Source of the DNA: Deltaproteobacteria bacterium
Lineage (GTDB): Bacteria > Desulfobacterota > GWC2-55-46
Reading direction: 5' to 3'
DNA length: 64,000 bases
Assembly (NCBI GenBank): GCA_016234855.1
Contig: JACRNO010000060.1
Coordinates: forward strand, 9,595 to 73,594
This document shows positions 12,820-63,751 of the stretch, piece after piece (position 1 is the first letter of the stretch; each line of letters starts with the position of its first letter). The notes beneath the pieces were generated by a model. It saw only the letters and a program-made list of their open reading frames with translations. It was not told where the DNA came from and did not search any database. Both the position numbers and the translations under genes were made by a program.

Positions 12820-13254
12820 TCAACACGCGGCCCCTCCTGACCATGAACAGGTGCCGTCAGTCAACATCGTAACCGTTCCGTGCGCCCCGGTTGAATTCGG
12901 GTTGGTGACGGAGACAATATAGGAGTCGGCTATCCCGCCGGCCCCTGCGGTAATTGTGAGGACATTGTCTTTACTAACGACAAAGTAGGCTGTGCCAATT
13001 GTAACAGACGAAGGGCCGGTGAGCGCAGGCAGGGCGAGATAAGTCTTCGCATCAACGAAATAGGCCTCTTCCTGTATAAGGGCGTTCCTTGCGTCGTTTA
13101 CCATGCTTGCATTTATGGCGCGTTCCTTGAACGCCGAGTACTGAGGGATGGCTATGCTTGCAAGAAGCGCAATAATCGCAACGACCATCAGAAGCTCGAT
13201 AAGCGTGAAACCGGCGTCCCTTGACTGCGAATGAGATGAGATTGACAACATCAT
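12820..13254 (-). CDS. Type IVa pilin-like protein (second, divergent pilin paralogue)
   Basis: Class III signal motif G/FTLIELLMVVAIIALLASIAIPQY with Glu5, plus a C-terminal Cys pair (DGTCSWSGGAAC). The track start is the TTG at 13305. The ATG at 13254 (MMLSISSHSQSRDAG|FTLIE, GGAG 6 nt upstream) is more plausible. The leader is atypical, with few basic residues. Confidence 0.75.
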   Translation of the reverse strand: MMLSISSHSQSRDAGFTLIELLMVVAIIALLASIAIPQYSAFKERAINASMVNDARNALIQEEAYFVDAKTYLALPALTGPSSVTIGTAYFVVSKDNVLTITAGAGGIADSYIVSVTNPNSTGAHGTVTMLTDGTCSWSGGAAC

Positions 13255-13303
13255 CCTCGGCTCCATAGAGGCAAAATGAAATATGACAAGACCCACATGT
13301 ACC

Positions 13304-13572
13304 AAGGAACTTCTGATTAATTATATTCTGCTGTCATTCTGAAGGAGTCCAGCACCACCTTGCGTCGCCAAGTTTAGTTTTGGCACGAACTTTTGTGATG
13401 GAAAGTGGTGCTGGACGACTGAAGAATCTCGTAACTATTTGATTTGCCAATAGACAAGATTCTTCCCCATTCGCTACGCTCAGGGCTAAAGGCGCAAAAA
13501 GCATAACGTTAGCGCACAAGGCTCACGCGCTCAGAATGACAGGCTCAGTAGAATAAATCAGAGGGTCCTTAA
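13304..13572. mobile_element. MITE-like element copy 3, abutting second pilin gene
   Basis: TIRs AAGGAACTTCTGATTAATTAT (13304-13324) and GAATAAATCAGAGGGTCCTTAA (13551-13572). Internal GTCATTCTGAAGGAG...CTCAGAATGACA palindrome and GCGCTAACGTTATGC module. Confidence 0.6.
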
Positions 13573-13820
13573 CAAAGCTTTGCTACATTCATGCCCGAGC
13601 AAGCCAAAAACTACATAATTATTCGGATATTCCATAAAAACATGCCACAGCATGTCGCCTCAATGACACTTTTTGCCTGATTTGACACACCTGGGAGTAA
13701 ATAACAGACCTGCACCTACAGATTAATACCACAAATTGACGCTATTGTCACATATATTTTGCAACAACTAAAAAATACCTTCATTTGCCATTAAGATATG
13801 ACACCCGCCAGGAAGAGAAC

Positions 13821-13857
13821 AAAAAAAACACCAAGGCAGGGTTCCCTGCCTTGGTGT
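13821..13857 (-). terminator. Intrinsic terminator downstream of pilA
   Basis: On the minus strand: CACCAAGGCAGGGAACCCTGCCTTGGTG hairpin followed by TTTTTTTT, 37 nt after the pilA stop. Confidence 0.8.
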
Positions 13858-13893
13858 CACGGGCCAGTCTCTAATCAAACCGGCTTCCGTCTA

Positions 13894-14364
13894 TTAGCAA
13901 ACGGCGGCGTTGGCATACGTGCAAACTCCGAGTTGGTTGTACGTAAGATCGCCGTAGGCGCCGGCAGTAGACGAACCTGAATTGGCGTTAGCAACAGTTA
14001 TGGTGAAGGTACCGGTGCCAAAAACACCTGCGGTTGTTGCTATGGTAACAGTATTGCCGAGGCTGACCTTGACAGAGTAGGTATTCAGCCTGGTCGCGCC
14101 GTTCCAAGTCATAATGGCAGGGCCAACGCCGCTTATGCCGTTCGCATCCATATAAGAGTTTTCGTCTGACATGGTTGCCTCGAGATTGGTCGCGGTATTC
14201 CTTGCGTCCGCTACCATCGACGCCCTTACGCCCCTCTCTCTGTAGGCCGAGAACTGCGGGATGGCGATTGCCGCGAGGATGGCGATAATCGCGACGACGA
14301 TGAGCAACTCGATGAGCGTAAAGCCTTCTTCATTCTTCTGTCTCTTAAGCATTTCCTTTAACAT
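13894..14364 (-). CDS. pilA: Type IVa major pilin PilA (Geobacter-type N-terminus, full length)
   Basis: 156 aa. MLKEMLKRQKNEEG|FTLIELLIVVAIIAILAAIAIPQFSAYRE closely resembles Geobacter/Desulfuromonadales PilA. C-terminal disulfide loop CTYANAAVC. Perfect AGGAGG SD 6 nt before the ATG. Sigma-54 promoter and intrinsic terminator flank the gene. Confidence 0.9.
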   Translation of the reverse strand: MLKEMLKRQKNEEGFTLIELLIVVAIIAILAAIAIPQFSAYRERGVRASMVADARNTATNLEATMSDENSYMDANGISGVGPAIMTWNGATRLNTYSVKVSLGNTVTIATTAGVFGTGTFTITVANANSGSSTAGAYGDLTYNQLGVCTYANAAVC

Positions 14365-14438
14365 GTGTGGCCTCCTTTTGCTTGTGCGTTTTGGCTCCGG
14401 CTAATGCCGGGATGCCGTGATATCCTACATATATAGAT

Positions 14439-14455
14439 TGCAATGCCCGTGCCAA
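14439..14455 (-). promoter_or_regulatory. Sigma-54 (RpoN) -24/-12 promoter of pilA
   Basis: Minus-strand reading gives TGGCAC-GGGCA-TTGCA, an exact match to the TGGCAC-N5-TTGCW consensus. It sits about 75 nt upstream of the pilA ATG. Confidence 0.8.
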
Positions 14456-14531
14456 CATGGCTTTTTGTTATAAATCAATAGGTTAGTTTAGAACTCCATA
14501 TGCATATTAAGCCTTGGGGTGCCGCTTATTG

Positions 14532-14566
14532 TCACCGAAGTGACAAAAATTGTCACTTCGGTGATG
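14532..14566 (-). promoter_or_regulatory. Tandem dyad (TGTCAC-N4-GTGACA twice) candidate PilR enhancer
   Basis: 33-bp perfect palindrome TCACCGAAGTGACAA-AAA-TTGTCACTTCGGTGA centred about 95 bp upstream of the sigma-54 -24 element. This geometry is typical for bacterial enhancer-binding proteins. Confidence 0.55.
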
Positions 14567-14613
14567 GAGTTAATCTGCGGCGCGCAAGACATAACCCCTC
14601 CCGGCCTCCCCTT

Positions 14614-14716
14614 AAATAAGGGGAGGAGAAAGACAACTCTCCCCCGAGACGGAGGGCAGGCAACCTCTGCAAGTTTGCTTAAATAAGGGGAGGAGAAAGA
14701 CAACTCTCCCCCTCTT
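14614..14716. repeat. Two 35-bp direct repeats CTTAAATAAGGGGAGGAGAAAGACAACTCTCCCCC (GGGGAG hairpin family)
   Basis: Copies at about 14614-14650 and 14681-14716, each containing CCCCTTAAATAAGGGG and GGAGAAAGACAACTCTCC hairpins. Related GGGGAG/CTCCCC hairpins occur at 37930-38010, 44290-44370 and 59040-59150. Confidence 0.6.
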
Positions 14717-14729
14717 TTTAAAGAGGGGG
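14707..14729 (-). terminator. Putative terminator hairpin after pilR
   Basis: CCCCCTCTTTTTAAAGAGGGGG perfect hairpin 20 nt downstream of the pilR stop. The T-tract is weak. Confidence 0.4.
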
Positions 14730-14748
14730 CCGGGGGGAGTTAATTGTA

Positions 14749-16158
14749 CTACTCCTCCCCCACCCCATATTTGCTCAGCTTATAGCGCATGGCGCGAAAC
14801 GACATGCCAAGAAGCTCGGCAGCCTTCTTCTTTGCCCCGCCAGTAACCTTCAATGCGTCCATAATGGCCGTCCGCTCGAACTCTTCAACGGTCTTTTCAA
14901 GGTCAAACCCTGCCCCCTCTTTCAAGCGCGCAGGCGTAAGCCCCACGCGCTCGGCTGTATCCCCCTGCCCGGCCGCCTTCGGGGCCTGGCGCGCATGCAG
15001 GGGCAGGCTCTCCACGGTAATCAGATCGGAAGGCTCAAGGGCAACGGCGCGCTCCATTATGTTTTCAAGCTCGCGCACGTTGCCCGGATAATCGTATTCC
15101 ATGAGCGCGGCCATCGCCGGCGCGGAGATTACGGTTATGGTCTTGCCCATATCCTTATTATACTTCTCAAGAAAGTGCCTCGCTAAAAGCGGGATATCTT
15201 CTTTACGCTCGCGTAAGGCCGGCATATCGATACGTATCACGTTCAACCTGTAGAAGAGGTCTTCCCTGAACCTGCCCGCCTTGACCTCGGCCTCGAGGTT
15301 CCTATTTGAGGCGGCAATGAGCCTTATATCGACCGGTACATCGACAGTGCCGCCGACCCTGCGAAACCGCCTCTCCTGTATAAAACGCAGGAGCTTGACC
15401 TGAAGGTGCAGAGGCATCTCGGTCAACTCGTCGAGGAAGAGCGTGCCGCCGTCCGCCTCCTCGGCCAGCCCCTGCTTATTGGCCACCGCCCCTGTGAACG
15501 CGCCTTTCTGATGACCGAAGAGCTCGCTCTCAAGGAGGTTCTCGGGTATGGCCCCGCAGTTGACCGCGACGAACGGCGCGTCTTTCCTGTCGCTCTCGTG
15601 CCATATCGCCCGCGCCGCGATCTCCTTGCCCGTGCCGGATTCCCCGGTGATAAAGACGTTGGTCTTGCCCTTTGCTATGCTTACGATAAGCTGATATACC
15701 TCAGTCATCCTCGGGCTTGCCCCCACCATGTTTGCAAACCCGAACCTGGCCTTGCAATCGTCCTTAAGCAGCTTGTTCTCGAGTTCAAGCCGCCTGAGCT
15801 TCAGGGCCTTACGGATATTGAGCTTTATCTCGTCCACGTTGAACGGCTTGGTGAAATAATCAAACGCGCCGGCCTTCATGGCCTCAACCGCGGTATCGAC
15901 CGAGGCATATGCGGTAATCATTATGACGATGGTCTCGGGGGCCAGTTCCTTGACGGCCTTGAGAAACTCCAGGCCCGTCATGCCGGGCATCTTTAGGTCC
16001 GTCAGCACGAGGTCGCATCTGTTCTCCCTGCAGAACTCAAGCGCGGCAGCGGGAGCCGGGAAACTGCGCGCCTCGTAGCCTTCCTTGCGGAGCATTATCT
16101 CCAGAAAATCCCGCATGTCTTTCTCGTCGTCTACTATTATAATCCTCGGCGCGCTCAT
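14749..16158 (-). CDS. pilR: Sigma-54-dependent response regulator PilR (NtrC family)
   Basis: 469 aa with a REC domain (IIIVDDEKDMRD...D...K), an AAA+ sigma-54 activator domain (GESGTGKE, ESELFGH) and a C-terminal HTH. Sits between pilS and pilA as in Geobacter and Pseudomonas. Confidence 0.9.
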   Translation of the reverse strand: MSAPRIIIVDDEKDMRDFLEIMLRKEGYEARSFPAPAAALEFCRENRCDLVLTDLKMPGMTGLEFLKAVKELAPETIVIMITAYASVDTAVEAMKAGAFDYFTKPFNVDEIKLNIRKALKLRRLELENKLLKDDCKARFGFANMVGASPRMTEVYQLIVSIAKGKTNVFITGESGTGKEIAARAIWHESDRKDAPFVAVNCGAIPENLLESELFGHQKGAFTGAVANKQGLAEEADGGTLFLDELTEMPLHLQVKLLRFIQERRFRRVGGTVDVPVDIRLIAASNRNLEAEVKAGRFREDLFYRLNVIRIDMPALRERKEDIPLLARHFLEKYNKDMGKTITVISAPAMAALMEYDYPGNVRELENIMERAVALEPSDLITVESLPLHARQAPKAAGQGDTAERVGLTPARLKEGAGFDLEKTVEEFERTAIMDALKVTGGAKKKAAELLGMSFRAMRYKLSKYGVGEE

Positions 16159-16214: not shown

Positions 16215-17930
16215 CTACGCCCCGACGGCGTCCTTCTTTCTGTTCGCATTCTCCGTCATCAATCCATGCAACGGCAGAAGTATCTTGAAGACCGTGCCGG
16301 AGCCGAGGCTGCTTCTGGCGTCGATTGTGCCCTCATGGCTCTCTATAATCCTGTGTATGATGGCAAGGCCGAGGCCAGTGCCGGTATCCTTGGTCGAAAA
16401 GAACGGGTCGAATATCCTCTTGAGGTCGTCCTGCTTGATGCCGCAGCCGGTATCCGTCACCAGCACCTCCGCATACGAGCGATGCGCGCCCCCGGACAGA
16501 CGGCTGTCCGCGGAATTGTCGTTATGCAATATCCTTGAAGTCAAGGTCAAGGTGCCGCCGTTCGGCATGGCATGGGCCGCGTTTACGAAAAGGTTCCAGA
16601 AGACCTGCCCTAACTGCCGCTCCAGGCCGTTGACGTACAACCCCTCGCCGAGGTTGCTTTTGATATTGATGCCGGCAGCCTCAGGGCTGTTTTCAAAGAC
16701 CTTTACCGTGCCCCTTATGACCGCGGCGAGATCGACCCTGTCTCTCTTGCCGGTGGCAGGTTTAGCGAAGAGCAGGTAGTCGGTTATGAGCTTATTGAGC
16801 CGTTCGGTCTCGCGCACCACTATCTCCATCAGATGGGCGTTATCTCCGCTCAGACGGAGTTCGTCACTGAGCACCTGTATGGAGCCGCTTATGGAGGCCA
16901 GCGGGTTTCTTATCTCATGCGCTATGCCTACGGAGAGTTCGCCAAGGGCCTTGAGCTTCTCGCTCACGCGAAGCCTTTCCTCCATCGCCTTTATCTGCGT
17001 CATATCCTCGAAGATGATAATGTAAGCGGCCTCCCCGCCCTCGCCCCTGGAGATGGTATACCCGATACATACCTCTACGCCGTCCTTTTTTCTGAAGTTC
17101 TTTTCCGCGCGAAGGCTCTCTCTGGGCGAATCGCCCGGGGCGCCCTGCATCATATCCGGGAATATCTCACGCGCGTCCTTGTAGTATACGTCGCGCAGGT
17201 TATACCCCGTAACATGGGTCGCCTCCTTGTTAAACGAGGTTATCCGCAATAGTTCGTCAACGGTCATTATGCCGCTCGTAATGTTCTCGACTATCAGACG
17301 ATTGAGACTCTCGAGTCTGTCGAAGTCTATCTCCTTCGCTTCAAGCCTCTTTTCGACCTTGGCCATTGACTCGGCAAGATAGCCTGCCAGATACGCAATA
17401 ATGAAATAAGCAAGGATATTCGTCGTTATGGTCGTAAATACGTCCGCCCACAAAGGCGCGGCCACGTGGACGCCGAAGACCTTGAATTTTGCGGGAAGCA
17501 CCCTATAGTAGTCAAGGTCTATCAATACGCCATAACAGATGGCGGAGAGGGCTGCCGCGTAAAGACCTCCGCGCTTATTAATGATAATGGCGCCGCCTAT
17601 GACGACCAACGGATAAAGGACGTGAAGATAGCTCTCCACCCCGCCGGTGATATATACGATAAGCGTTATCAGAAGGATATCCGCCGTGACCTGCATGTAG
17701 ACGAAGAGCTTGAGGTTGGCTATCCGCTTGAATACGATGGCATAGAAGATTGAGAAGAGACCGACAAGGACAACTATTGCATAGAGGGGCGTAAAATTGA
17801 TATCTGCGGTGGAGGAGGCCTTTATCTGAAACCACGAGGTTATGCTCAGGAACGCAAGCCCGAGGACAACCCTAAGCACCATCATGGCCAGGAGTTTAGC
17901 CCGGAACGCGCTTATGGGGCTTTCCTGCAT
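16215..17930 (-). CDS. pilS: Sensor histidine kinase PilS
   Basis: 571 aa with a multi-TM N-terminal domain, PAS-like region, HisKA (GIAHEIRNPLASI) and HATPase_c. Immediately upstream of pilR. Confidence 0.85.
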   Translation of the reverse strand: MQESPISAFRAKLLAMMVLRVVLGLAFLSITSWFQIKASSTADINFTPLYAIVVLVGLFSIFYAIVFKRIANLKLFVYMQVTADILLITLIVYITGGVESYLHVLYPLVVIGGAIIINKRGGLYAAALSAICYGVLIDLDYYRVLPAKFKVFGVHVAAPLWADVFTTITTNILAYFIIAYLAGYLAESMAKVEKRLEAKEIDFDRLESLNRLIVENITSGIMTVDELLRITSFNKEATHVTGYNLRDVYYKDAREIFPDMMQGAPGDSPRESLRAEKNFRKKDGVEVCIGYTISRGEGGEAAYIIIFEDMTQIKAMEERLRVSEKLKALGELSVGIAHEIRNPLASISGSIQVLSDELRLSGDNAHLMEIVVRETERLNKLITDYLLFAKPATGKRDRVDLAAVIRGTVKVFENSPEAAGINIKSNLGEGLYVNGLERQLGQVFWNLFVNAAHAMPNGGTLTLTSRILHNDNSADSRLSGGAHRSYAEVLVTDTGCGIKQDDLKRIFDPFFSTKDTGTGLGLAIIHRIIESHEGTIDARSSLGSGTVFKILLPLHGLMTENANRKKDAVGA

Positions 17931-17947: not shown

Positions 17948-19168
17948 CTATCCGGCCGCGCCGGCAAGAGCGAATATCGGCAGGTAAAGCGCTATAACCA
18001 ATCCGCCGACGGTGACGCCGAGGAATGCCATCAACATCGGCTCGATAAGGGAGGTCAGCGCCTCGACCGCCGAGTCAACCTCTTCTTCATAGAAGTCGGC
18101 AATCTTGTTGAGCATGGCGTCGAGCGCGCCGGTGGACTCACCGACGCCTATCATCTGCACGACCATGCCAGGGAAGACCTTGGACTCCGCAAGAGGCTCC
18201 GCAAGCGTCTTGCCCTGCGACAGACTTACACGCGCCTGCATGATGGCTTCTTTAATAATGGTATTGCCTGCGGTGTTGGCGACGATTTCAAGGGCCTCGA
18301 GGATGGGCACGCCGCTGGATAGCATGGTGCCGAGCGTCCTTGTAAAGCGGGCGGTGGAAGACTTTCTTACAAGATCGCCCATGACCGGGAGCTTCAGCAA
18401 TATGCTGTCAATAATCTTCTTGCCCTTAGGGGTTCCGTTGGCATGCTTGATGCCGAAAAAGACAGCCACGAGAAACCCGACAATTATATACCACTGGTGC
18501 TTGAGGAAGTTACTCATGTTAACGACCATCTGCGTGGGCAAAGGCAGCGCCTTGCCAAAACCTGCAAACATGCCCTCGAATATCGGCACGACGAAGATAA
18601 GGAGACCGGAGACGATAAGCGTGGCTATGACTATTACCGCCGTAGGATAGGTCATCGCGCTCTTGACCTTACTCTTTAGCTTCTCGGCCTTCTCAAGGAA
18701 GCCGGAGAGCCTTGCAAGGATGGTATCGAGGATACCGCCGACCTCGCCGGCGGCGACAAGGTTTACATAAAGGTTATCGAAGACCTTTGGGTGCTTTCTG
18801 AGAGAATCGGCAAAGGTTGCGCCGCCTTCAACCGAGTTCTTTACCTCGCCGATGACCCTTTTGAACTCCTTGTTTTCATTCTGGCTGCCCAGCAGGTCGA
18901 GACACTGGACAAGCGGCAGACCGGCGTCAATCATGGTGGCGAACTGACGGCTGAAAATAACGAGCTCTTTGGTGGGCACACCCCCGCCGGGCTTGAAACT
19001 CTTAAGCTTATCCATGAGGCCGCCGCCCACGCCCTTCTCAGTAACCGAGGTCGCGTTGATCTGCATCCTCTTGATGGTGGCGTTGGCTTGAGCAAGGGTT
19101 GCGGCCTCGACCTCGCCGCTGCGTGACTCTCCGGCGATATTCTTACCAGTGTATACGAATGTCGGCAT
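17948..19168 (-). CDS. pilC: Type IV pilus inner-membrane platform protein PilC (GspF family)
   Basis: Two GspF-like repeats with three TM segments. MPTFVYTGKN... is the conserved PilC start (ATG at 19166-19168). The track ORF is extended to 19228. Confidence 0.9.
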   Translation of the reverse strand: MPTFVYTGKNIAGESRSGEVEAATLAQANATIKRMQINATSVTEKGVGGGLMDKLKSFKPGGGVPTKELVIFSRQFATMIDAGLPLVQCLDLLGSQNENKEFKRVIGEVKNSVEGGATFADSLRKHPKVFDNLYVNLVAAGEVGGILDTILARLSGFLEKAEKLKSKVKSAMTYPTAVIVIATLIVSGLLIFVVPIFEGMFAGFGKALPLPTQMVVNMSNFLKHQWYIIVGFLVAVFFGIKHANGTPKGKKIIDSILLKLPVMGDLVRKSSTARFTRTLGTMLSSGVPILEALEIVANTAGNTIIKEAIMQARVSLSQGKTLAEPLAESKVFPGMVVQMIGVGESTGALDAMLNKIADFYEEEVDSAVEALTSLIEPMLMAFLGVTVGGLVIALYLPIFALAGAAG

Positions 19169-19393
19169 AGTTTTATCTTCTCGTTGGCCGCCCTCGATAT
19201 TCATAAAAACGAATATAAAGAGAAGCAATTATTGAAACTGTCGCCATTGTCATGAGCCGGACTCACGACGTCAAAAAAAATCTCAGTACCTGGGCGCGCC
19301 GTATAAAATCGTCTCTCACAACGGCATGCGATTGTAATTATATCACACTTTTGTCATTCATCAAACCCGGAGACTGAAAGCGGCATGCCGGCC

Positions 19394-20524
19394 CTACCTC
19401 ATTGGCGCGCCAGGCTTCACTATTCCGGCATTGGCAAGCATCTGTTTCAACTCATCCGGCTCGGAACTGCGCCCCATCGCCTCGTCCATGTTGATAAGCC
19501 GCCTGCCGACAAGATTGACGAGGCACTGGTTCATCGTCTGCATGCCGAACTTGGACTGACCGACCTGCATCTGGGAGTAGACCTGATGGACCTTATCCTC
19601 GCGGATGAGGTTCCTTATGGCGGCGTTAGGCACCATTATCTCCAACGCGACGCACCTGCCCTTGCCGTCGGCCCTCGGTATCAGGAGCTGCGAAAGCACG
19701 CCCTCGAGCACGAACGACAACTGCGCGCGAATCTGCGGCTGCTGGCCCGAAGGAAATACGTCGACGACCCTGTTTATCGTCTGAACGCATGAGTTCGTAT
19801 GCAGGGTGGCGAAGCACAGATGGCCCGTCTCGGCGACGGTCAGCGCGGTCTCTATGGTCTCGATATCGCGCAGCTCGCCGAGCAGGACGACGTCCGGGTC
19901 CTGACGCAATATATACTTGAGGGCCTTTTTAAAGGCATGTGTGTCATATCCCACCTCGCGTTGATTGACGAGCGCCTTCTTTGACGGATGGAGATATTCT
20001 ATCGGGTCTTCGACCGTAATGATATGCTCGTGCCTCTCCGAATTAATCTTGTCTATCATGGCGGCAAGCGTTGTCGTCTTGCCGCTGCCGGTGGGGCCGG
20101 TAACAAGGATTAGACCGCGCGGTTTTTTACAAAGTTCTTCGAGTATCGGCGGCAGGCCGAGTTCCGTAAAGGACTTTATCTGGAATGGAATAGTCCTGAA
20201 AACGCCTGCAACGGTGCCCCGTTGCACGAAAAGATTGCCCCTGAAACGGCTGAGGCCTTTGAGGCCGAAAGAGAAGTCAAGCTCATTTTCTTCTTCAAAT
20301 TTGTGTTTCTGCGTGTCCTGGAGAATCGTGTAGCATATCTGCTTCGTCTCAACGCCGCTTAGCACCGCCGCGCCGGGCACGGGCTGAAGCGAGCCGTGCA
20401 CGCGCATCCTCGGCGGGGAGTTTGCGGATAAGTGCAGGTCGGAGCCCCCCTTTTCTATCATAATTTTCAAGAGGTCCTGGAGATTGTACTTTGCTCCCCC
20501 GCCGCCTTCGACCGCCATTATCAA
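19394..20524 (-). CDS. pilT: Twitching motility ATPase PilT
   Basis: 376 aa. Walker A GPTGSGKTTT, Asp box and His box (ATLHTN) of PilT-class secretion ATPases, with no N-terminal GSPII extension. AAGGAG SD. Confidence 0.9.
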   Translation of the reverse strand: MIMAVEGGGGAKYNLQDLLKIMIEKGGSDLHLSANSPPRMRVHGSLQPVPGAAVLSGVETKQICYTILQDTQKHKFEEENELDFSFGLKGLSRFRGNLFVQRGTVAGVFRTIPFQIKSFTELGLPPILEELCKKPRGLILVTGPTGSGKTTTLAAMIDKINSERHEHIITVEDPIEYLHPSKKALVNQREVGYDTHAFKKALKYILRQDPDVVLLGELRDIETIETALTVAETGHLCFATLHTNSCVQTINRVVDVFPSGQQPQIRAQLSFVLEGVLSQLLIPRADGKGRCVALEIMVPNAAIRNLIREDKVHQVYSQMQVGQSKFGMQTMNQCLVNLVGRRLINMDEAMGRSSEPDELKQMLANAGIVKPGAPMR

Positions 20525-20654: not shown

Positions 20655-22358
20655 CTAATCGGCCATCGTCACCCTCATGATCTCTTCGATGGTGGAGACA
20701 CCCTCAAGCACCTTGGTGATACCGCTCATACGAAGCGTCTTCATCCCGTCTTTGATGGCAATCCTTTTAATCTCCGAGGTAGGGGCGCCGTTCAACACCG
20801 CCTCCTTCAGGGCATCCGTAAAAGGCATGACCTCGTAAAGCGCTATCCTGCCCTTGTACCCGCTTCCGTTGCACGTCGCGCACCCCGCGCCCTTGTAGAC
20901 CTCAACCCCGGCGTCTATAATGTCCTGCGCGACGCCGAAGGTCTTTAACAAGGCCTCGGACGGCTGTGGGGCCTTGACCTTGCAGTCCTTGCATACCTTA
21001 CGGGCGAGCCTCTGGGCCAGGATGAGGTTACATGCGGACGAGACGAGGAACGGTTCTATACCCATGTTAAGCAGCCTGTTAACGGTGCCCGGGGCGTCGT
21101 TCGTATGGAGAGTGGAAAGCACCAAATGACCCGTAAGCGCGGCCTTGACCGCGATCTCGGCCGTCTCATAGTCGCGTATCTCTCCGACCATGATAACGTC
21201 CGGGTCCTGACGCAGGAAGCTCCTCAGCGCCGCCGCGAAGTTCAGGCCGATATCGTCGTGCATCTGACACTGGTTTATGCCGCCGAGATTGAACTCGACT
21301 GGGTCTTCCGCGGTCGAGATATTCTCGCTCACCTTGTTAAGGTCTGAGAGGGCTGAATAAAGCGTCGTCGTCTTGCCGGAGCCGGTCGGGCCGGTGACGA
21401 GGCAGATGCCCCACGGCTTGTGGATGGCGTGCATGAAGTCGTCAAGGGCCTTCTGCTCGAAACCGAGCTTGGTCATGTCGAGCTGCAGGTTGCCCTTGTC
21501 GAGGAGACGCAAGACCGTCTTCTCGCCGAAGAGCGTCGGCAGCACGGAGACGCGGTAGTCCATCTCCTTGTTCTTGGCGAGCTTGAGCTTGATCCTGCCG
21601 TCCTGCGGCAGCCTGCGCTCGGCGATATCGAGATTGGCGATGATCTTTATCCTGGACGTGATGGCGTTTCTGAGCTTCATGGGAGGCTTCATCACCTCCT
21701 GAAGCACGCCGTCAATCCTGTAACGCACGCGGAAGGACTTTTCATAGGGCTCGATATGGATATCGGAGGCGTTCTTCTTGATGGCGTCGGTGAGTATCAT
21801 GTTGACGAGCTTGACGACAGGGGCGTCTTCAACGGCCTTCTTGAGGTCGTTGACGTCGACGTCGTCTTCCTCCCTGACGACCTCCATGTCGGTGTCTTCA
21901 AAATCGCCGAGCATGCCTTCGAGGTTGGCCTCCGGCGATTCATACTGCTTTTCAATGGCGGCCTTTATGGCGGCCTCGGAGGCGATAAGCGGCTCGACGT
22001 TGTAACCGGTAAGGAATTTTATGTCGTCGATTGCGAAGATGTTGGACGGGTCGGCCATGGCCATGACCAACGTGGAGCCGGTCCTGTTAACCGGTATTAT
22101 CTGGTACTTCTGACAGACGTCCTCAGGTATGAGCTTTACGATTTCAGGGTCGATTTCAGCGGCGGCAAGGTCGATGGTGGGTATCCCGTACTGCCTGCTC
22201 AAAAAGGCGGTCAGGTCTTTTTCGGTAATGAATCCGAGCTTGGTGAGATTAAGACCAAGCCGGCCACCGCTCATCTTCTGCTCATCAATAGCCTTTTTCA
22301 ACTGCTCGGCCGTAATAAGCCTCTCTCTAAGTAGTAGTTCGCCGATTCTATCCGCCAT
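20655..22358 (-). CDS. pilB: Type IV pilus assembly ATPase PilB
   Basis: 567 aa. GSPII N-domain, Walker A GPTGSGKTTT, tetracysteine motif (CKDC...CATCNGSG). Confidence 0.9.
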   Translation of the reverse strand: MADRIGELLLRERLITAEQLKKAIDEQKMSGGRLGLNLTKLGFITEKDLTAFLSRQYGIPTIDLAAAEIDPEIVKLIPEDVCQKYQIIPVNRTGSTLVMAMADPSNIFAIDDIKFLTGYNVEPLIASEAAIKAAIEKQYESPEANLEGMLGDFEDTDMEVVREEDDVDVNDLKKAVEDAPVVKLVNMILTDAIKKNASDIHIEPYEKSFRVRYRIDGVLQEVMKPPMKLRNAITSRIKIIANLDIAERRLPQDGRIKLKLAKNKEMDYRVSVLPTLFGEKTVLRLLDKGNLQLDMTKLGFEQKALDDFMHAIHKPWGICLVTGPTGSGKTTTLYSALSDLNKVSENISTAEDPVEFNLGGINQCQMHDDIGLNFAAALRSFLRQDPDVIMVGEIRDYETAEIAVKAALTGHLVLSTLHTNDAPGTVNRLLNMGIEPFLVSSACNLILAQRLARKVCKDCKVKAPQPSEALLKTFGVAQDIIDAGVEVYKGAGCATCNGSGYKGRIALYEVMPFTDALKEAVLNGAPTSEIKRIAIKDGMKTLRMSGITKVLEGVSTIEEIMRVTMAD

Positions 22359-41532: not shown

Positions 41533-42741
41533 TTACTGCCCCTGCATCACCGCGTCTATGGTATTCGCGGACGTGGACAATATCCTGATCCTCCCGTTCG
41601 GAAGCCTTGCAAGGTCGTCGGCAATCTGCTGGGCCGGGACCTTCACGTCAAGGTCGAATACGGCTGTGCCGTCTTCAAAACGCCGCTGGTATATATTGAC
41701 CACGCCTCTGATGTTTTTCTTGAGAATATTCTTGAAATCAGCCGTCTTCGTGTAATCGGCAAGGCCGGCAATCCTTATCGTGACCGTGTTGCCGCGTGTC
41801 CATTTGGCGATAATCTGCTCTATCAGCTTGTCCGCCGCCTCGGACGCGGCCCTTGCGGATGCGTCCACACCGCCGGAAGTCTTCGATATGTGCCTTGACG
41901 CCCCGTGCCCCTTTGCGCTGGCAAGCACCGTGCCATCATCCACGCGTATCACGTCAACGGAGATATCGGCAAGGTACGAGCCGATAGTTGAACCTGCAAG
42001 CCTCATCCCCTCGGTCACTACGGATTTTCCCTTGACCACGAGTTCGGCGTTCAGGCCGCGGCCAATCCTGCGCGCCCTGTCCCTGGAAAGCCCGGATGAC
42101 GAACCTCCAGGCACATCGGGCGAGGCTGAGATATCCACGACCTGAAACCCCTTGTTCAAAAAGACCTCTTTCATGGACGACTCAGCAGCCGGCATCTCGG
42201 AATCGTCGCCTTCGACAACGCGCAGGGTATCGTTATCAAGGCCAAGCCCCTTTTCAGTTATAAGAAAGAGTATGCGCGGCTTTTCGACCTTGACCATCAG
42301 GAGGCCCAACGCGTCGAGGTCGTTTCTTATCTCCCCCATAGCCACGGTCGCATGGACCGTAACCTGATAGGTATCCTGCACCTGTCCTTCCCTGAGGACG
42401 TTATAATCGCGCACGTAACCCTGCGTCTTCGTATATACGTTGTCGTTAAGCACCTGATAGTCCTGCACCATAGTCTCGGACGATACAAGCAGGCCCACGG
42501 CCTGCTCAACGGCCTTACGCAAGGCGTCGTTTACAGCCGCATCCCTCGCAACCAGGGTATTGCCGCCGGAGATGACGGCATAGCCCGTGGCATCGACCGT
42601 CTTAAGTTCGGGCGCATCCACGGCAAAAGCCGCCCCGCCAACCGCCATAAAAAAGAGAACGATGAGCGCGGCCGCAAGGACGCGAGCATGTGTTAACATC
42701 GCGGCGAAGTAACTGGTCTGAGCCATAGTCATATTATACAC
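41533..42741 (-). CDS. Secreted protein with two or three LPP20/FlgP-like repeats
   Basis: Signal peptide. Repeated modules of the form G(Y/S)AVISGG...ARDAAVNDALRKAVEQAVG...V...D, with a second at ELVVKGKSVVTEGMRLAGSTIGSYLADISVDVIRVDDG. 402 aa, no enzymatic motifs. Confidence 0.45.
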   Translation of the reverse strand: MYNMTMAQTSYFAAMLTHARVLAAALIVLFFMAVGGAAFAVDAPELKTVDATGYAVISGGNTLVARDAAVNDALRKAVEQAVGLLVSSETMVQDYQVLNDNVYTKTQGYVRDYNVLREGQVQDTYQVTVHATVAMGEIRNDLDALGLLMVKVEKPRILFLITEKGLGLDNDTLRVVEGDDSEMPAAESSMKEVFLNKGFQVVDISASPDVPGGSSSGLSRDRARRIGRGLNAELVVKGKSVVTEGMRLAGSTIGSYLADISVDVIRVDDGTVLASAKGHGASRHISKTSGGVDASARAASEAADKLIEQIIAKWTRGNTVTIRIAGLADYTKTADFKNILKKNIRGVVNIYQRRFEDGTAVFDLDVKVPAQQIADDLARLPNGRIRILSTSANTIDAVMQGQ

Positions 42742-60690: not shown

Positions 60691-60756
60691 ATGTTTTTGG
60701 TAAAAAAAAGTGCATCCCTGACACAGGGATGCACTTTTTCTGACATTAATGCCGCA

Positions 60757-63585
60757 TCAGGCGGCCTTATCCTTGATTATCGTGGGAGTGATGAATATGA
60801 GGAGCTCCTTCTGATTATCCATGGTGTGTTTGTTCTTGAAGATCCAGCCGAGCAACGGGATATCCATCAGGTACGGGATGCCGCTCTCCGAATCATTCTT
60901 GTCGGATACGATGATGCCGCCGATAACCGTCGTCTCGCCGTCAAGGACCAAGACCTCTGTCGCGGCCTCTTTCTTGTTGATACTCGGAGCGCCGGACGAG
61001 GTCCTGAACGTGCCGATGGAGTTCCTCGACGCCTTGATCTTCATGAGCACGCTGCCGTCAGGCGTGATGTGCGGCGTGACGGTAAGGCTCAGGTTGGCGT
61101 CAATGAAGGTAGTCGCGGTGCCGCTTGCCGAGGTCGTCTCAAACGGGATGGACTCGCCCTGTTCTATCTTGGCTTCCTTGTTGTCAAGCGTAGTAACACG
61201 CGGACGCGATATCGTCTTCAACCGGCCCGACGCCTCGCCGGCCGAGAGACGAAGGTCCAGTATGAACGGGTTTGTGCCGTTCCTGCCCATAATAAAACCA
61301 AGCGCGCCGAGCGTATTGGTGGCTGGCAGGTTGACTGCATAGTTCGTTACGCCGGCATTAGTAGGCCATTCGGTCTTTACCGTATTCGGCACGCTGAGGT
61401 CGCCTGTTGTGGCGCCGTTCTGGCTGCTGAAATCAGTCTTGCCGCCGCCGTTAAGGTCGGCGGCTGTCTGACCATTCTGGGTAGTGCTGCCCATTGTGTT
61501 AGTACGCACGGAATCGCCAGCCAGCCTGTAGTCAAGCCCCCACTGTATGCCGAGGTCTCTCGTGAAGCTGGACTCGGCCTCCACGATGCGCGCCTCAATC
61601 TGCACCTGCGGTATCGCGTTATCAAGTTTGGCTATTAGTTTTTCAGCGTCCGCGATGCCCTGTTTGACATCCTTGATTATCAGCGTATTCGTCCTCTTCT
61701 CGCTCGTTACAGAGCCCCTGTCGCTGAGTACGGCCTTCACATGAGAGGAAAGGTCGGAGGCAGTGGCGAAGTTAACCGGGATAAACCTGATATCAAGCGG
61801 CTCGAGTTTCTCCTGCGCCTTTTTCGCTGCCAGCGCGGTGTCTTTCTCCTTGCGCAGCGTTGCCGTAGGCGCGACGCGGATGACGTTGCCAATCCTGGAT
61901 ACGCCAAGGTCCTTGCTCTTGAGCACGATATCGAAGACCTGGTCCCACGGGACGTTCTTAAGGCTCAGGGTAACCGTCCCCTTGACGTCGTCCGACGCTA
62001 TGATATTAAAGCTGCTGACCGTCGCCAAAAGCCTGAAGATATCATGTATATTGGCGTCAACCATGTCAATGTCTATCTTCTTGCCGGTAAATACCTTGGG
62101 CTTCTCGCCGGTCTCGGACTCTTCACCTGAATTTGACTCTATGCCCACGGTCACGTCGGGCTCCTGTTTCTTTTCGGCTTCAACGACCGCTGTATCTACA
62201 GACGCAGCAACCGCCGTCGTGAAATCCACGCTGACCGAGGTCTCAGACTCCGTAACCTCATATTTGGTCTTGCCAGCAAGCTTAACAAGGACACGCACGT
62301 CCTTGACCGGGGCCTCACTCTCCTGATAGGAACTCACGGCCAGTACAGGGGTATTTAATTTGGTAGCATCGAGCGTGCGTTTGAGATCATCCATGAGCGT
62401 TGCATTCATAAGGTCGAGCATAAGCGTCTTGCCGTCGGCAGACTCTTCAACCTTTATCTCCGTCTTGATAGACCTGACGACGGTCAACCTTCCGTTACCA
62501 TTAAGCTTTCTATAATCAACCAGCGTGACCTGCGCGCTGTCATCCTTTACCTTCTCGACGGGCACAGCCGCCGGCTCAACTGCTGGCGCAGGGGATACGG
62601 TCTGCTCCGGCGCCGCGGCCTTTGCCGCTACGGCAACGGCCGGCGCCGTGGCCGGAGCGGCCTGCTCAACCGCATTCGCGCCCATATTAAGAACAAGACC
62701 GGTCTCGGCTTTGGCTATGACGTATTTAGGCAGCTTCTTGTCGGAGGCATCCACAACAAGACGCACCTTGCCCTTGTGCGTGCCGACCCTCAGCGACTTG
62801 ACATACTTTTCATTCAGTTTAAAACTACTCTTACCGGTCATGTTCTTGATGCCCATGACGTCGATGACTATCCTCGCCGGGCTGTCAAGCGCGAACGCGT
62901 TATACTCGGCCGGCGCGCCGTTCATGGATATCGTAAGCACCGTATTGCCGGTTGCCGATGAAGAGCTTATGCCCGTGATGCCGGTTGCCGGCATTGCAGG
63001 CTCCTTTGCGACAGCCTCGACAGGCGCCGCGCCTTCCACCGGCGTGGCTACCTCTTCCGTATTAACGTCGGACGCCTTTGCGCTTGAAGCGGTCTCTTGC
63101 GGCTCGGAAGCGGGTTTTGAAAGGGTCACCAGGAGCATATTGGCTCCCGCCATAACCTTGTGGTCCACGCCCTCGTTCAACCCGAGCACCACGCGCCCGA
63201 TATTCATCCCCTCGGCCATGGGCTGCACGTTGACGTCCTTCACGAATTCATTCTTGACGTCTATGGGTGAGGAGATACGCGACATATCCACATTCGGCAT
63301 ATCTATTATAAGTCTCGGCGGATCATTCAGCTTGAAGACGGTATATTTAACGCTGCCGGTGGTGCTTATGATAACCCTTGTGCCGTCGCTGGAACCCCTT
63401 ACGCTCTCAACGGCGATTCTGTTATCGTCGGGCGTAGCCGCTGTCGCCTGATCAGCCTTGGCAGGCTGAGCATCTGCCGGCCCTTCGCTATCGGCCCCTA
63501 TCGTCGCACACCCCGTAAAAGCGAGAAAACCGCAAAGCGCAATACCGGCAAGAGCCGTTTTGTATCGGTTACCTGAGATATACAT
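60757..63585 (-). CDS. pilQ: Type IV pilus secretin PilQ with N-terminal AMIN domains and long Ala/Pro/Val-rich linkers
   Basis: Lipoprotein-like signal (ATG at 63585, GGAGG SD). Two AMIN-like beta domains, N0/N1 domains, and a C-terminal secretin domain (…VLVLDGETTVIGGI…SGIPYLMDIPLLGWIFKN…). Lies downstream of pilP. Confidence 0.85.
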   Translation of the reverse strand: MYISGNRYKTALAGIALCGFLAFTGCATIGADSEGPADAQPAKADQATAATPDDNRIAVESVRGSSDGTRVIISTTGSVKYTVFKLNDPPRLIIDMPNVDMSRISSPIDVKNEFVKDVNVQPMAEGMNIGRVVLGLNEGVDHKVMAGANMLLVTLSKPASEPQETASSAKASDVNTEEVATPVEGAAPVEAVAKEPAMPATGITGISSSSATGNTVLTISMNGAPAEYNAFALDSPARIVIDVMGIKNMTGKSSFKLNEKYVKSLRVGTHKGKVRLVVDASDKKLPKYVIAKAETGLVLNMGANAVEQAAPATAPAVAVAAKAAAPEQTVSPAPAVEPAAVPVEKVKDDSAQVTLVDYRKLNGNGRLTVVRSIKTEIKVEESADGKTLMLDLMNATLMDDLKRTLDATKLNTPVLAVSSYQESEAPVKDVRVLVKLAGKTKYEVTESETSVSVDFTTAVAASVDTAVVEAEKKQEPDVTVGIESNSGEESETGEKPKVFTGKKIDIDMVDANIHDIFRLLATVSSFNIIASDDVKGTVTLSLKNVPWDQVFDIVLKSKDLGVSRIGNVIRVAPTATLRKEKDTALAAKKAQEKLEPLDIRFIPVNFATASDLSSHVKAVLSDRGSVTSEKRTNTLIIKDVKQGIADAEKLIAKLDNAIPQVQIEARIVEAESSFTRDLGIQWGLDYRLAGDSVRTNTMGSTTQNGQTAADLNGGGKTDFSSQNGATTGDLSVPNTVKTEWPTNAGVTNYAVNLPATNTLGALGFIMGRNGTNPFILDLRLSAGEASGRLKTISRPRVTTLDNKEAKIEQGESIPFETTSASGTATTFIDANLSLTVTPHITPDGSVLMKIKASRNSIGTFRTSSGAPSINKKEAATEVLVLDGETTVIGGIIVSDKNDSESGIPYLMDIPLLGWIFKNKHTMDNQKELLIFITPTIIKDKAA

Positions 63586-63751
63586 AAAAAACCTCCATAG
63601 AATTGCGGATACTTCCACAAAGCTGAATCCGCCGGCCAATGTCGGATGTTAATTCCTTCTGGCTATATCGCGCATACAACCCTTCCTAAACATACACATC
63701 CGGACGTACGCGTCATAAACCGCCGCTGCCCGATTCGCAGCGCGAACGGGC

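Follow-up and report, generated by a model that had tools for sequence, protein, structure and literature searches.

A predicted enhancer-dependent sigma-54 promoter with paired PilR-type dyads and an IHF-like site upstream of pilA in an uncultured deltaproteobacterium

The window analysed here, a 64,000-nucleotide stretch of a contig from the metagenome-assembled genome of an uncultured 'Deltaproteobacteria bacterium', carries a type IV pilus gene cluster in the order pilB-pilT-pilC-pilS-pilR-pilA, all on the minus strand. The genes pilB (20655–22358; TIGR02538, above cut-off), pilT (19394–20524) and pilC (17948–19228) are followed by pilS (16215–17930), which encodes a sensor kinase with a 6TM_PilS membrane domain (PF25323), HisKA and HATPase_c, and by pilR (14749–16158), encoding an NtrC-type activator with Response_reg (REC), Sigma54_activat, AAA_lid_14 and Fis-type HTH_8 domains (Pfam). 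In the alignment, PilR displays a GAFTGA loop and the conserved aspartate of the receiver domain, and its closest relatives, at 64–78% identity, belong to uncultured metagenome-assembled genomes. This arrangement bears out the sequence-only reading of the locus, an earlier interpretation that had placed pilR and pilS immediately upstream of pilA.

The pilA gene (13894–14364, minus strand) encodes a type IV prepilin of 156 residues (N_methyl, TIGR02532) whose leader ends ...EEG/FTLIELL. The pilin deposited at NCBI (MBI5886433.1, 152 residues) begins at the second in-frame methionine (window 14352–14364); the 156-residue form is favoured since AGGAGG, read from the sequence at 14376..14371 on the minus strand and a strong ribosome-binding site, lies 6 nt ahead of the ATG at 14364. 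Downstream of pilA is an intrinsic terminator (13858..13827, minus strand) with a 14-bp stem and U8 (-26.4 kcal/mol, z = -4.3), and a stem and U8 directly 3' of the gene suggest that pilA is probably monocistronic. A second type IV prepilin gene is found on the same strand at 12820 to about 13260. The spacer of about 590 nt upstream of it contains neither a -24/-12 element nor a PilR dyad, which places the second pilin outside the PilR circuit. This region (12820–13893, minus strand) lies behind the pilA terminator, and its spacer holds an exact IHF consensus (13432–13444) and a long imperfect hairpin (13336–13427). In one syntenic relative (L086, 4448–4963), a separate sigma-54-like element, TGGCGCGCATATTGCA, precedes the start of the second pilin by 83 nt, and the three to four tandem copies of GCGCCGTGTGCGCCATCGTTTGTC further upstream may serve a different activator.

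A gene for a PilQ-type secretin with AMIN, STN, Secretin_N and Secretin domains (60757–63639, minus strand) is located some 40 kb away from the pilB-pilA cluster, with a perfect inverted repeat of 16-nt arms (60705–60739) around its stop codon. A scan of the larger ORFs of the window, a size range above that of IHF genes, turned up no rpoN and neither ihfA nor ihfB. Between the pilR stop codon and the enhancer described below (14575–14752, minus strand) is a repeat-rich element of about 150 nt that contains a perfect 35-nt direct repeat (14611–14645 and 14678–14712), each copy with a terminator-like hairpin, and 38-nt imperfect terminal inverted repeats (14592–14629 and 14705–14742). The folding energy of its RNA is -81.9 kcal/mol (z = -5.5), and no other copy was present in the window or in 96 fetched loci. 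Either a MITE/REP-like small mobile insertion or a compound terminator of pilR may account for it.

The control elements of pilA are found in the pilR-pilA intergenic region (14365–14748). On the minus strand a sigma-54 -24/-12 element, TGGCACGGGCATTGCA, occupies 14454..14439, with the GG at 14453–14452 and the GC at 14441–14440. It is the sole exact match to TGGCAC-N5-TTGCW in the 64-kb window, where shuffled sequences gave an expectation of 0.07, and it lies 63 nt from AGGAGG and 75 nt from the ATG at 14364; the perfect element proposed earlier at about 60 nt ahead of the pilA AGGAGG-ATG is thus exact and unique. Allowing one mismatch yielded one further match in the window (41920–41935), which was dismissed as it falls inside an ORF of 402 codons for amino acids. 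Given the -12 spacing usual for sigma-54 promoters, the pilA transcript is predicted to start near 14428 (± about 2 nt, minus strand), which would give a 5' untranslated region of about 64 nt; the fold of this leader is unremarkable (z = -1.4). An Rfam scan of the whole window returned no matches, so that a riboswitch or known RNA does not explain the pilA control region.

Upstream of this element lie two PilR-type dyads, with positions counted here and below from the first G of the -24 GG. The distal dyad, GTGACAatttt TGTCAC (14556..14540, minus strand), is perfect and centred at -95, and the proximal dyad, GTGACAataagCGGCAC (14535..14519, minus strand), has one mismatch to TGACRN5YGTCA and is centred at -74. 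The two centres are 21 bp apart, or two helical turns, which puts both dyads on one face of the helix. The repeat finder reported a 33-bp palindrome (14532–14564, no strand) that embeds the distal dyad, with perfect 15-nt arms (14532–14546 and 14550–14564) around a 3-nt centre lying 95 bp upstream of the -24 GG, as the earlier interpretation had it. Five distinct perfect inverted repeats with arms of at least 12 nt occur in the window and none in mononucleotide shuffles; at least one of the five, the hairpin after pilA, is terminator-like. Between the dyads and the -24 element is a site that the sequence-only reading had missed, an IHF-like sequence TAACCTATTGATT (14485..14473, minus strand) that is an exact match to WATCAANNNNTTR on the plus strand and is centred 26 nt upstream of the GG.

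In order to see whether this layout recurs, promoters were gathered from other genomes. A scan anchored on PilR yielded 80 loci with a pilin nearby in only 5, most of the hits being other NtrC-family regulators, and in the locus of the closest PilR relative (L001, 78% identity) pilA is not adjacent to pilR. Since so few pilin loci were obtained in this way, PilA homologues were used instead. Relatives were picked by PilA protein similarity (50–60% identity) and not by motif, giving a set of 12 promoters made up of the window and 11 independent pilA homologue promoters, including that of Geobacter sulfurreducens.

All of the compared promoters contain one module with nearly fixed geometry, consisting of one or two dyads, an IHF-like site and a -24/-12 element. 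In consensus, TGACR-N5(A/T)-YGTCA is centred at about -95 and is usually followed by a second copy at about -73, with an IHF-like TAACnnnnTTGATT at about -26. Distal dyads of the relatives are centred at -92 to -96 (window, -95), proximal dyads at -69 to -74 (window, -74) and IHF-like sites at -24 to -26 (window, -26), while in L090 the dyads are displaced to -83 and -61. At least one dyad with no more than one mismatch is centred between -100 and -65 in 12/12 promoters as against 0.04 expected from shuffles, a comparison in which the dyad consensus was partly derived and refined from the same promoters; two dyads fall in this zone in six of the 12, compared with none in shuffles. An IHF-like site with at most one mismatch is present at -22 to -28 in 10/12 promoters (0.14 expected from shuffles). 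The -24/-12 element, with 0–2 mismatches, is found at all 11 of the other promoters, 84–142 nt upstream of the annotated pilA start. Tandem dyads are exemplified by CTGACAAAAAATGTCAtgcgaaCTGACAAAAATTGTCAC in L083 and CTGACAAAATTTGTCAGtaaaaATGACAAAATTTGTCAG in L091, and the distance between dyad centres is 21–23 bp across the promoters. A shift of the enhancer by two helical turns in L003 was considered and rejected, the geometry table showing that the perfect dyad at that locus is the proximal one. The relatives lack the long palindrome, and the sequence flanking their dyads is not palindromic, so the extension of the palindrome beyond the distal dyad is specific to the window.

The gene neighbourhoods of these promoters differ. 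Synteny with the window extends to pilR-pilA-pilin2-proS-ppiD in L086 and to pilC-pilS-pilR-pilA in L084, L088 and L091. However, the module is also retained where pilA is away from pilR (L081, L083, L089, L090 and L093), which points to a trans-acting factor. Relocated pilA homologues (L081–L083, L089, L090 and L093) lie in polysaccharide-synthesis, radical-SAM or other neighbourhoods and keep the full module. In the alignment, the C-terminal Fis-type helix-turn-helix of PilR is almost invariant among the window, the relatives and Geobacter; this fits a shared DNA specificity with one half-site base differing (TGACA versus TGACG).

Among the compared promoters is the experimentally studied one of G. 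sulfurreducens, whose pilA upstream dyads are equivalent in form and position to those of the window. The gene order pilS-pilR-pilA is shared (pilR-pilA being GSU1495-GSU1496), and PilR regulates pilA, located immediately downstream of pilR, in this organism (PMC2725144). Its pilA loci (L095 and L096) contain the distal dyad GTGACGaaaatCGTCAG centred at -94 (-94/-95 in the two species), an imperfect second copy, GTGACGaaataGGTGGT, 23 bp downstream (21–23 bp in the two species), the IHF-like site TAACgtgtTTGAA at -26, where both promoters have TAACnnnnTTGAw, and the -24/-12 element TTGGTTCGGCTTTTGCT. This last sequence is identical to the RpoN promoter given for GSU1496 in supplementary data of PMC2725144, which also states that the pilA RpoN element predicted by PromScan was identified by 5'-RACE in an earlier study. 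A role for IHF is consistent with the reported loss of both PilA protein and the pilA transcript from G. sulfurreducens mutated in ihfA-1 or ihfB-2 (PMC7962754). The PilR helix-turn-helix is nearly identical in the two organisms, whereas the proteins as a whole are only 50% identical. They differ further in the half-site (TGACG/CGTCA in Geobacter, TGACA/TGTCA in the window), in the -24/-12 element, which is weaker in Geobacter (TGGTTC...TTGCT, two mismatches) and a perfect consensus in the window, and in the pilin, which in Geobacter is truncated to about 70–90 residues with a separate small downstream ORF and in the window is full-length at 156 residues. The 33-bp perfect palindrome around the dyad is a feature of the window that Geobacter does not share. 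By comparison of these promoters, PilR presumably contacts exactly these dyad bases in Geobacter.

Enhancer-dependent promoters of the NtrC/NifA type, such as glnAp2 and nifH, place a pair of activator sites on one helix face, about 100 nt upstream, with an IHF bend between these sites and a GG-N10-GC promoter, and the window resembles them in its paired sites, intervening IHF-like site and GG-N10-GC. The NifA upstream activating sequence, TGT-N10-ACA, occurs in the window only as the dyad junction, which is not conserved. Pseudomonas aeruginosa likewise uses a two-component kinase and an NtrC-type activator to drive a sigma-54 pilin promoter from upstream sites; these sites reportedly contain TGTC-type elements, and in Pseudomonas pilA is not known to follow pilR directly on the same strand. 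The sites published for Pseudomonas-type systems (TGT-N11-ACA, tandem TGTC) do not take the form of the N5 dyad. No usable PilR motif was found in the Xanthomonas and Lysobacter papers.

Metagenome contigs were scanned for the exact pattern TGACA-N5-TGTCA, a gap of 58–88 nt and TGGCA-N6-TTGC, which returned at least 81 matches in at least 80 loci. A type IV pilin lies within 420 nt downstream in 29 of the 81 matches listed (36%), and these pilin-linked matches indicate that an N5 dyad upstream of sigma-54 pilin promoters is widespread; the non-pilin matches listed showed no coherent class of downstream gene. Gap lengths among the matches listed are not uniform. One cluster, at 83–87 nt, corresponds to the distal-dyad position of the clade to which the window belongs, while a second, at about 70–77 nt among the matches listed (loci L097–L176), precedes pilins of the Beta/Gammaproteobacteria style (MKK.[27 protein letters not shown]). 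These Beta/Gammaproteobacteria-style matches thus have TGACA-N5-TGTCA upstream of a -24/-12 element as the window does, but among those listed the dyad-promoter gap is 70–77 nt rather than 83–87 nt, which suggests that the same PilR box may be used at a different distance in such lineages.

Which bases form the unit of recognition requires some care, as the half-sites alternate at intervals of about 10.5 bp and two registers are formally possible. The sequence-only reading held that the palindrome contains two TGTCAC-N4-GTGACA dyads and had the geometry of a dimer-of-dimers activator site. One such copy (14530–14545) is perfect and extends beyond the palindrome by 2 nt; the other, TGTCACTTCGGTGATG (14551–14566), has two mismatches, so only one of the two dyads stands as described. 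If PilR dimers within the same circuit read these two copies, the site would be NifA-like (TGT-N10-ACA), and the published shorthand for PilR sites, TGT-N11-ACA or a NifA-like TGT-N11-AGA plus GTCT elements, could be taken in its favour, although this shorthand is loose and does not settle the register. However, TGT-N10-ACA is not kept as a unit among the relatives: it is perfect once in the window, its spacing varies by 2 bp with the dyad distance (a junction of N6 to N8 on the core pentamers), and it is missing from most relatives, including L092, L088, L084 and G. sulfurreducens, which have a single good dyad only. The internal spacing of TGACA-N5-TGTCA, in contrast, is invariant in the relatives, and four or five of its five spacer bases are always A/T. 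Since half-sites must lie at a set distance from each other for a dimeric helix-turn-helix protein and the internal N5 is constant, the conserved unit appears to be TGACA-N5-TGTCA, present twice in the window, with TGTCAC-N4-GTGACA as the junction between units. The junction bases CGAA/TTCG happen to be self-complementary, which accounts for the perfect TGTCAC-N4-GTGACA copy and for the 33-bp palindrome at this locus. We therefore consider the N4 register unlikely. The idea of two dimers on one DNA face survives, at a distance of 21 bp, with GTGACA-N5-TGTCAC, occurring twice, as the unit in place of TGTCAC-N4-GTGACA.

Other readings of the region would leave PilR out of the palindrome altogether. 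Some other regulator, whether a repressor or a second sigma-54 activator, might occupy the dyads, with PilR acting elsewhere or indirectly. Occupancy of the dyads by PilR is itself a prediction, further regulators act on pilA in G. sulfurreducens, GSU1771 among them, and a weak sigma-70-like match overlaps the palindrome. This match scores 9/12, however, and two such matches were found where 2.7 were expected, so that it was rejected as being at chance level. The fixed distance and helical phase of the dyads relative to a sigma-54 promoter, with an IHF-like site between, is the geometry of an activator and not of an operator; the dyad is linked to pilins across lineages, and the conserved PilR helix-turn-helix matches the conserved motif, all of which make a different regulator very improbable. 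As for the palindrome being an RNA hairpin that terminates or stabilizes the pilR transcript instead of a DNA-binding site, it lies downstream of pilR and would form a 15-bp stem in RNA (-23.9 kcal/mol, z = -6.8). No U-tract follows this hairpin, the next sequence being CAAUAAGC, and the terminator scan did not flag it; an intrinsic terminator was rejected on the missing U-tract. In addition, the relatives keep the short dyads but not the long stem, the module is kept where pilR is not upstream, and other terminator-like hairpins already stand between pilR and the palindrome. A role as an RNA hairpin can scarcely be credited.

Taken together, it is highly likely that the pilR-pilA intergenic region is a complete enhancer-dependent sigma-54 promoter through which PilS and PilR, by way of two dyads and IHF, would control pilA. 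Its elements are in place and are rare by chance, the genes around it are identified, and both motif and geometry are conserved across relatives; binding by PilR and IHF, the transcription start site and regulation by PilS are predictions from this layout. In the proposed mechanism, PilS would set the activity of PilR, and two PilR dimers would bind the TGACA-N5-TGTCA repeats at 14540–14556 (perfect) and 14519–14535 (imperfect), which lie roughly 120 and 99 nt ahead of the predicted start, on the same helix face and with centres 21 bp apart. IHF bound to TAACCTATTGATT (14473–14485), at about -51 from the predicted start, would bend the DNA so as to bring the AAA+ ring of PilR to sigma-54 RNA polymerase waiting in a closed complex on TGGCAC-N5-TTGCA (14454–14439). 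Hydrolysis of ATP would then open the promoter, and transcription would run from near 14428 through pilA to the terminator at 13858–13827.

This proposal works like the control of pilA by PilS, PilR and RpoN in Geobacter, Pseudomonas, Myxococcus and other bacteria, and its architecture is closest to that of G. sulfurreducens. The earlier assignment of the first pilin to a PilS/PilR/RpoN circuit as in Geobacter and Pseudomonas is backed by the gene content and by the dyads in 12/12 promoters. It is an ordinary but very clean case of a known pilin switch that involves no new mechanism, and a specialist would not be surprised by the pilA control region; the modest addition is a sharp, portable definition of the module. 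A broader proposal, which we put forward tentatively and hold to be doubtful as it stands, is that the window represents one instance of a rigid, deeply conserved module, with dyads at about -95 and -73, IHF at about -26 and a sigma-54 promoter, that extends from Geobacter to uncultured 'Deltaproteobacteria' whose PilR proteins are about 50% identical and that travels with pilA away from pilR.

For the organism, the analysis marks the first pilin (13894–14364) as the predicted major pilin under PilS/PilR/sigma-54 control in an uncultured deltaproteobacterial lineage, and supplies the exact bases for mutation or footprinting. If the module is undescribed at this resolution, it would provide a portable sequence rule by which the major pilin under PilR control, and PilR regulons, could be recognized in uncultured bacteria, and the fixed dyad-IHF-promoter layout may be used as a signature for major pilins and PilR targets in metagenome-assembled genomes.
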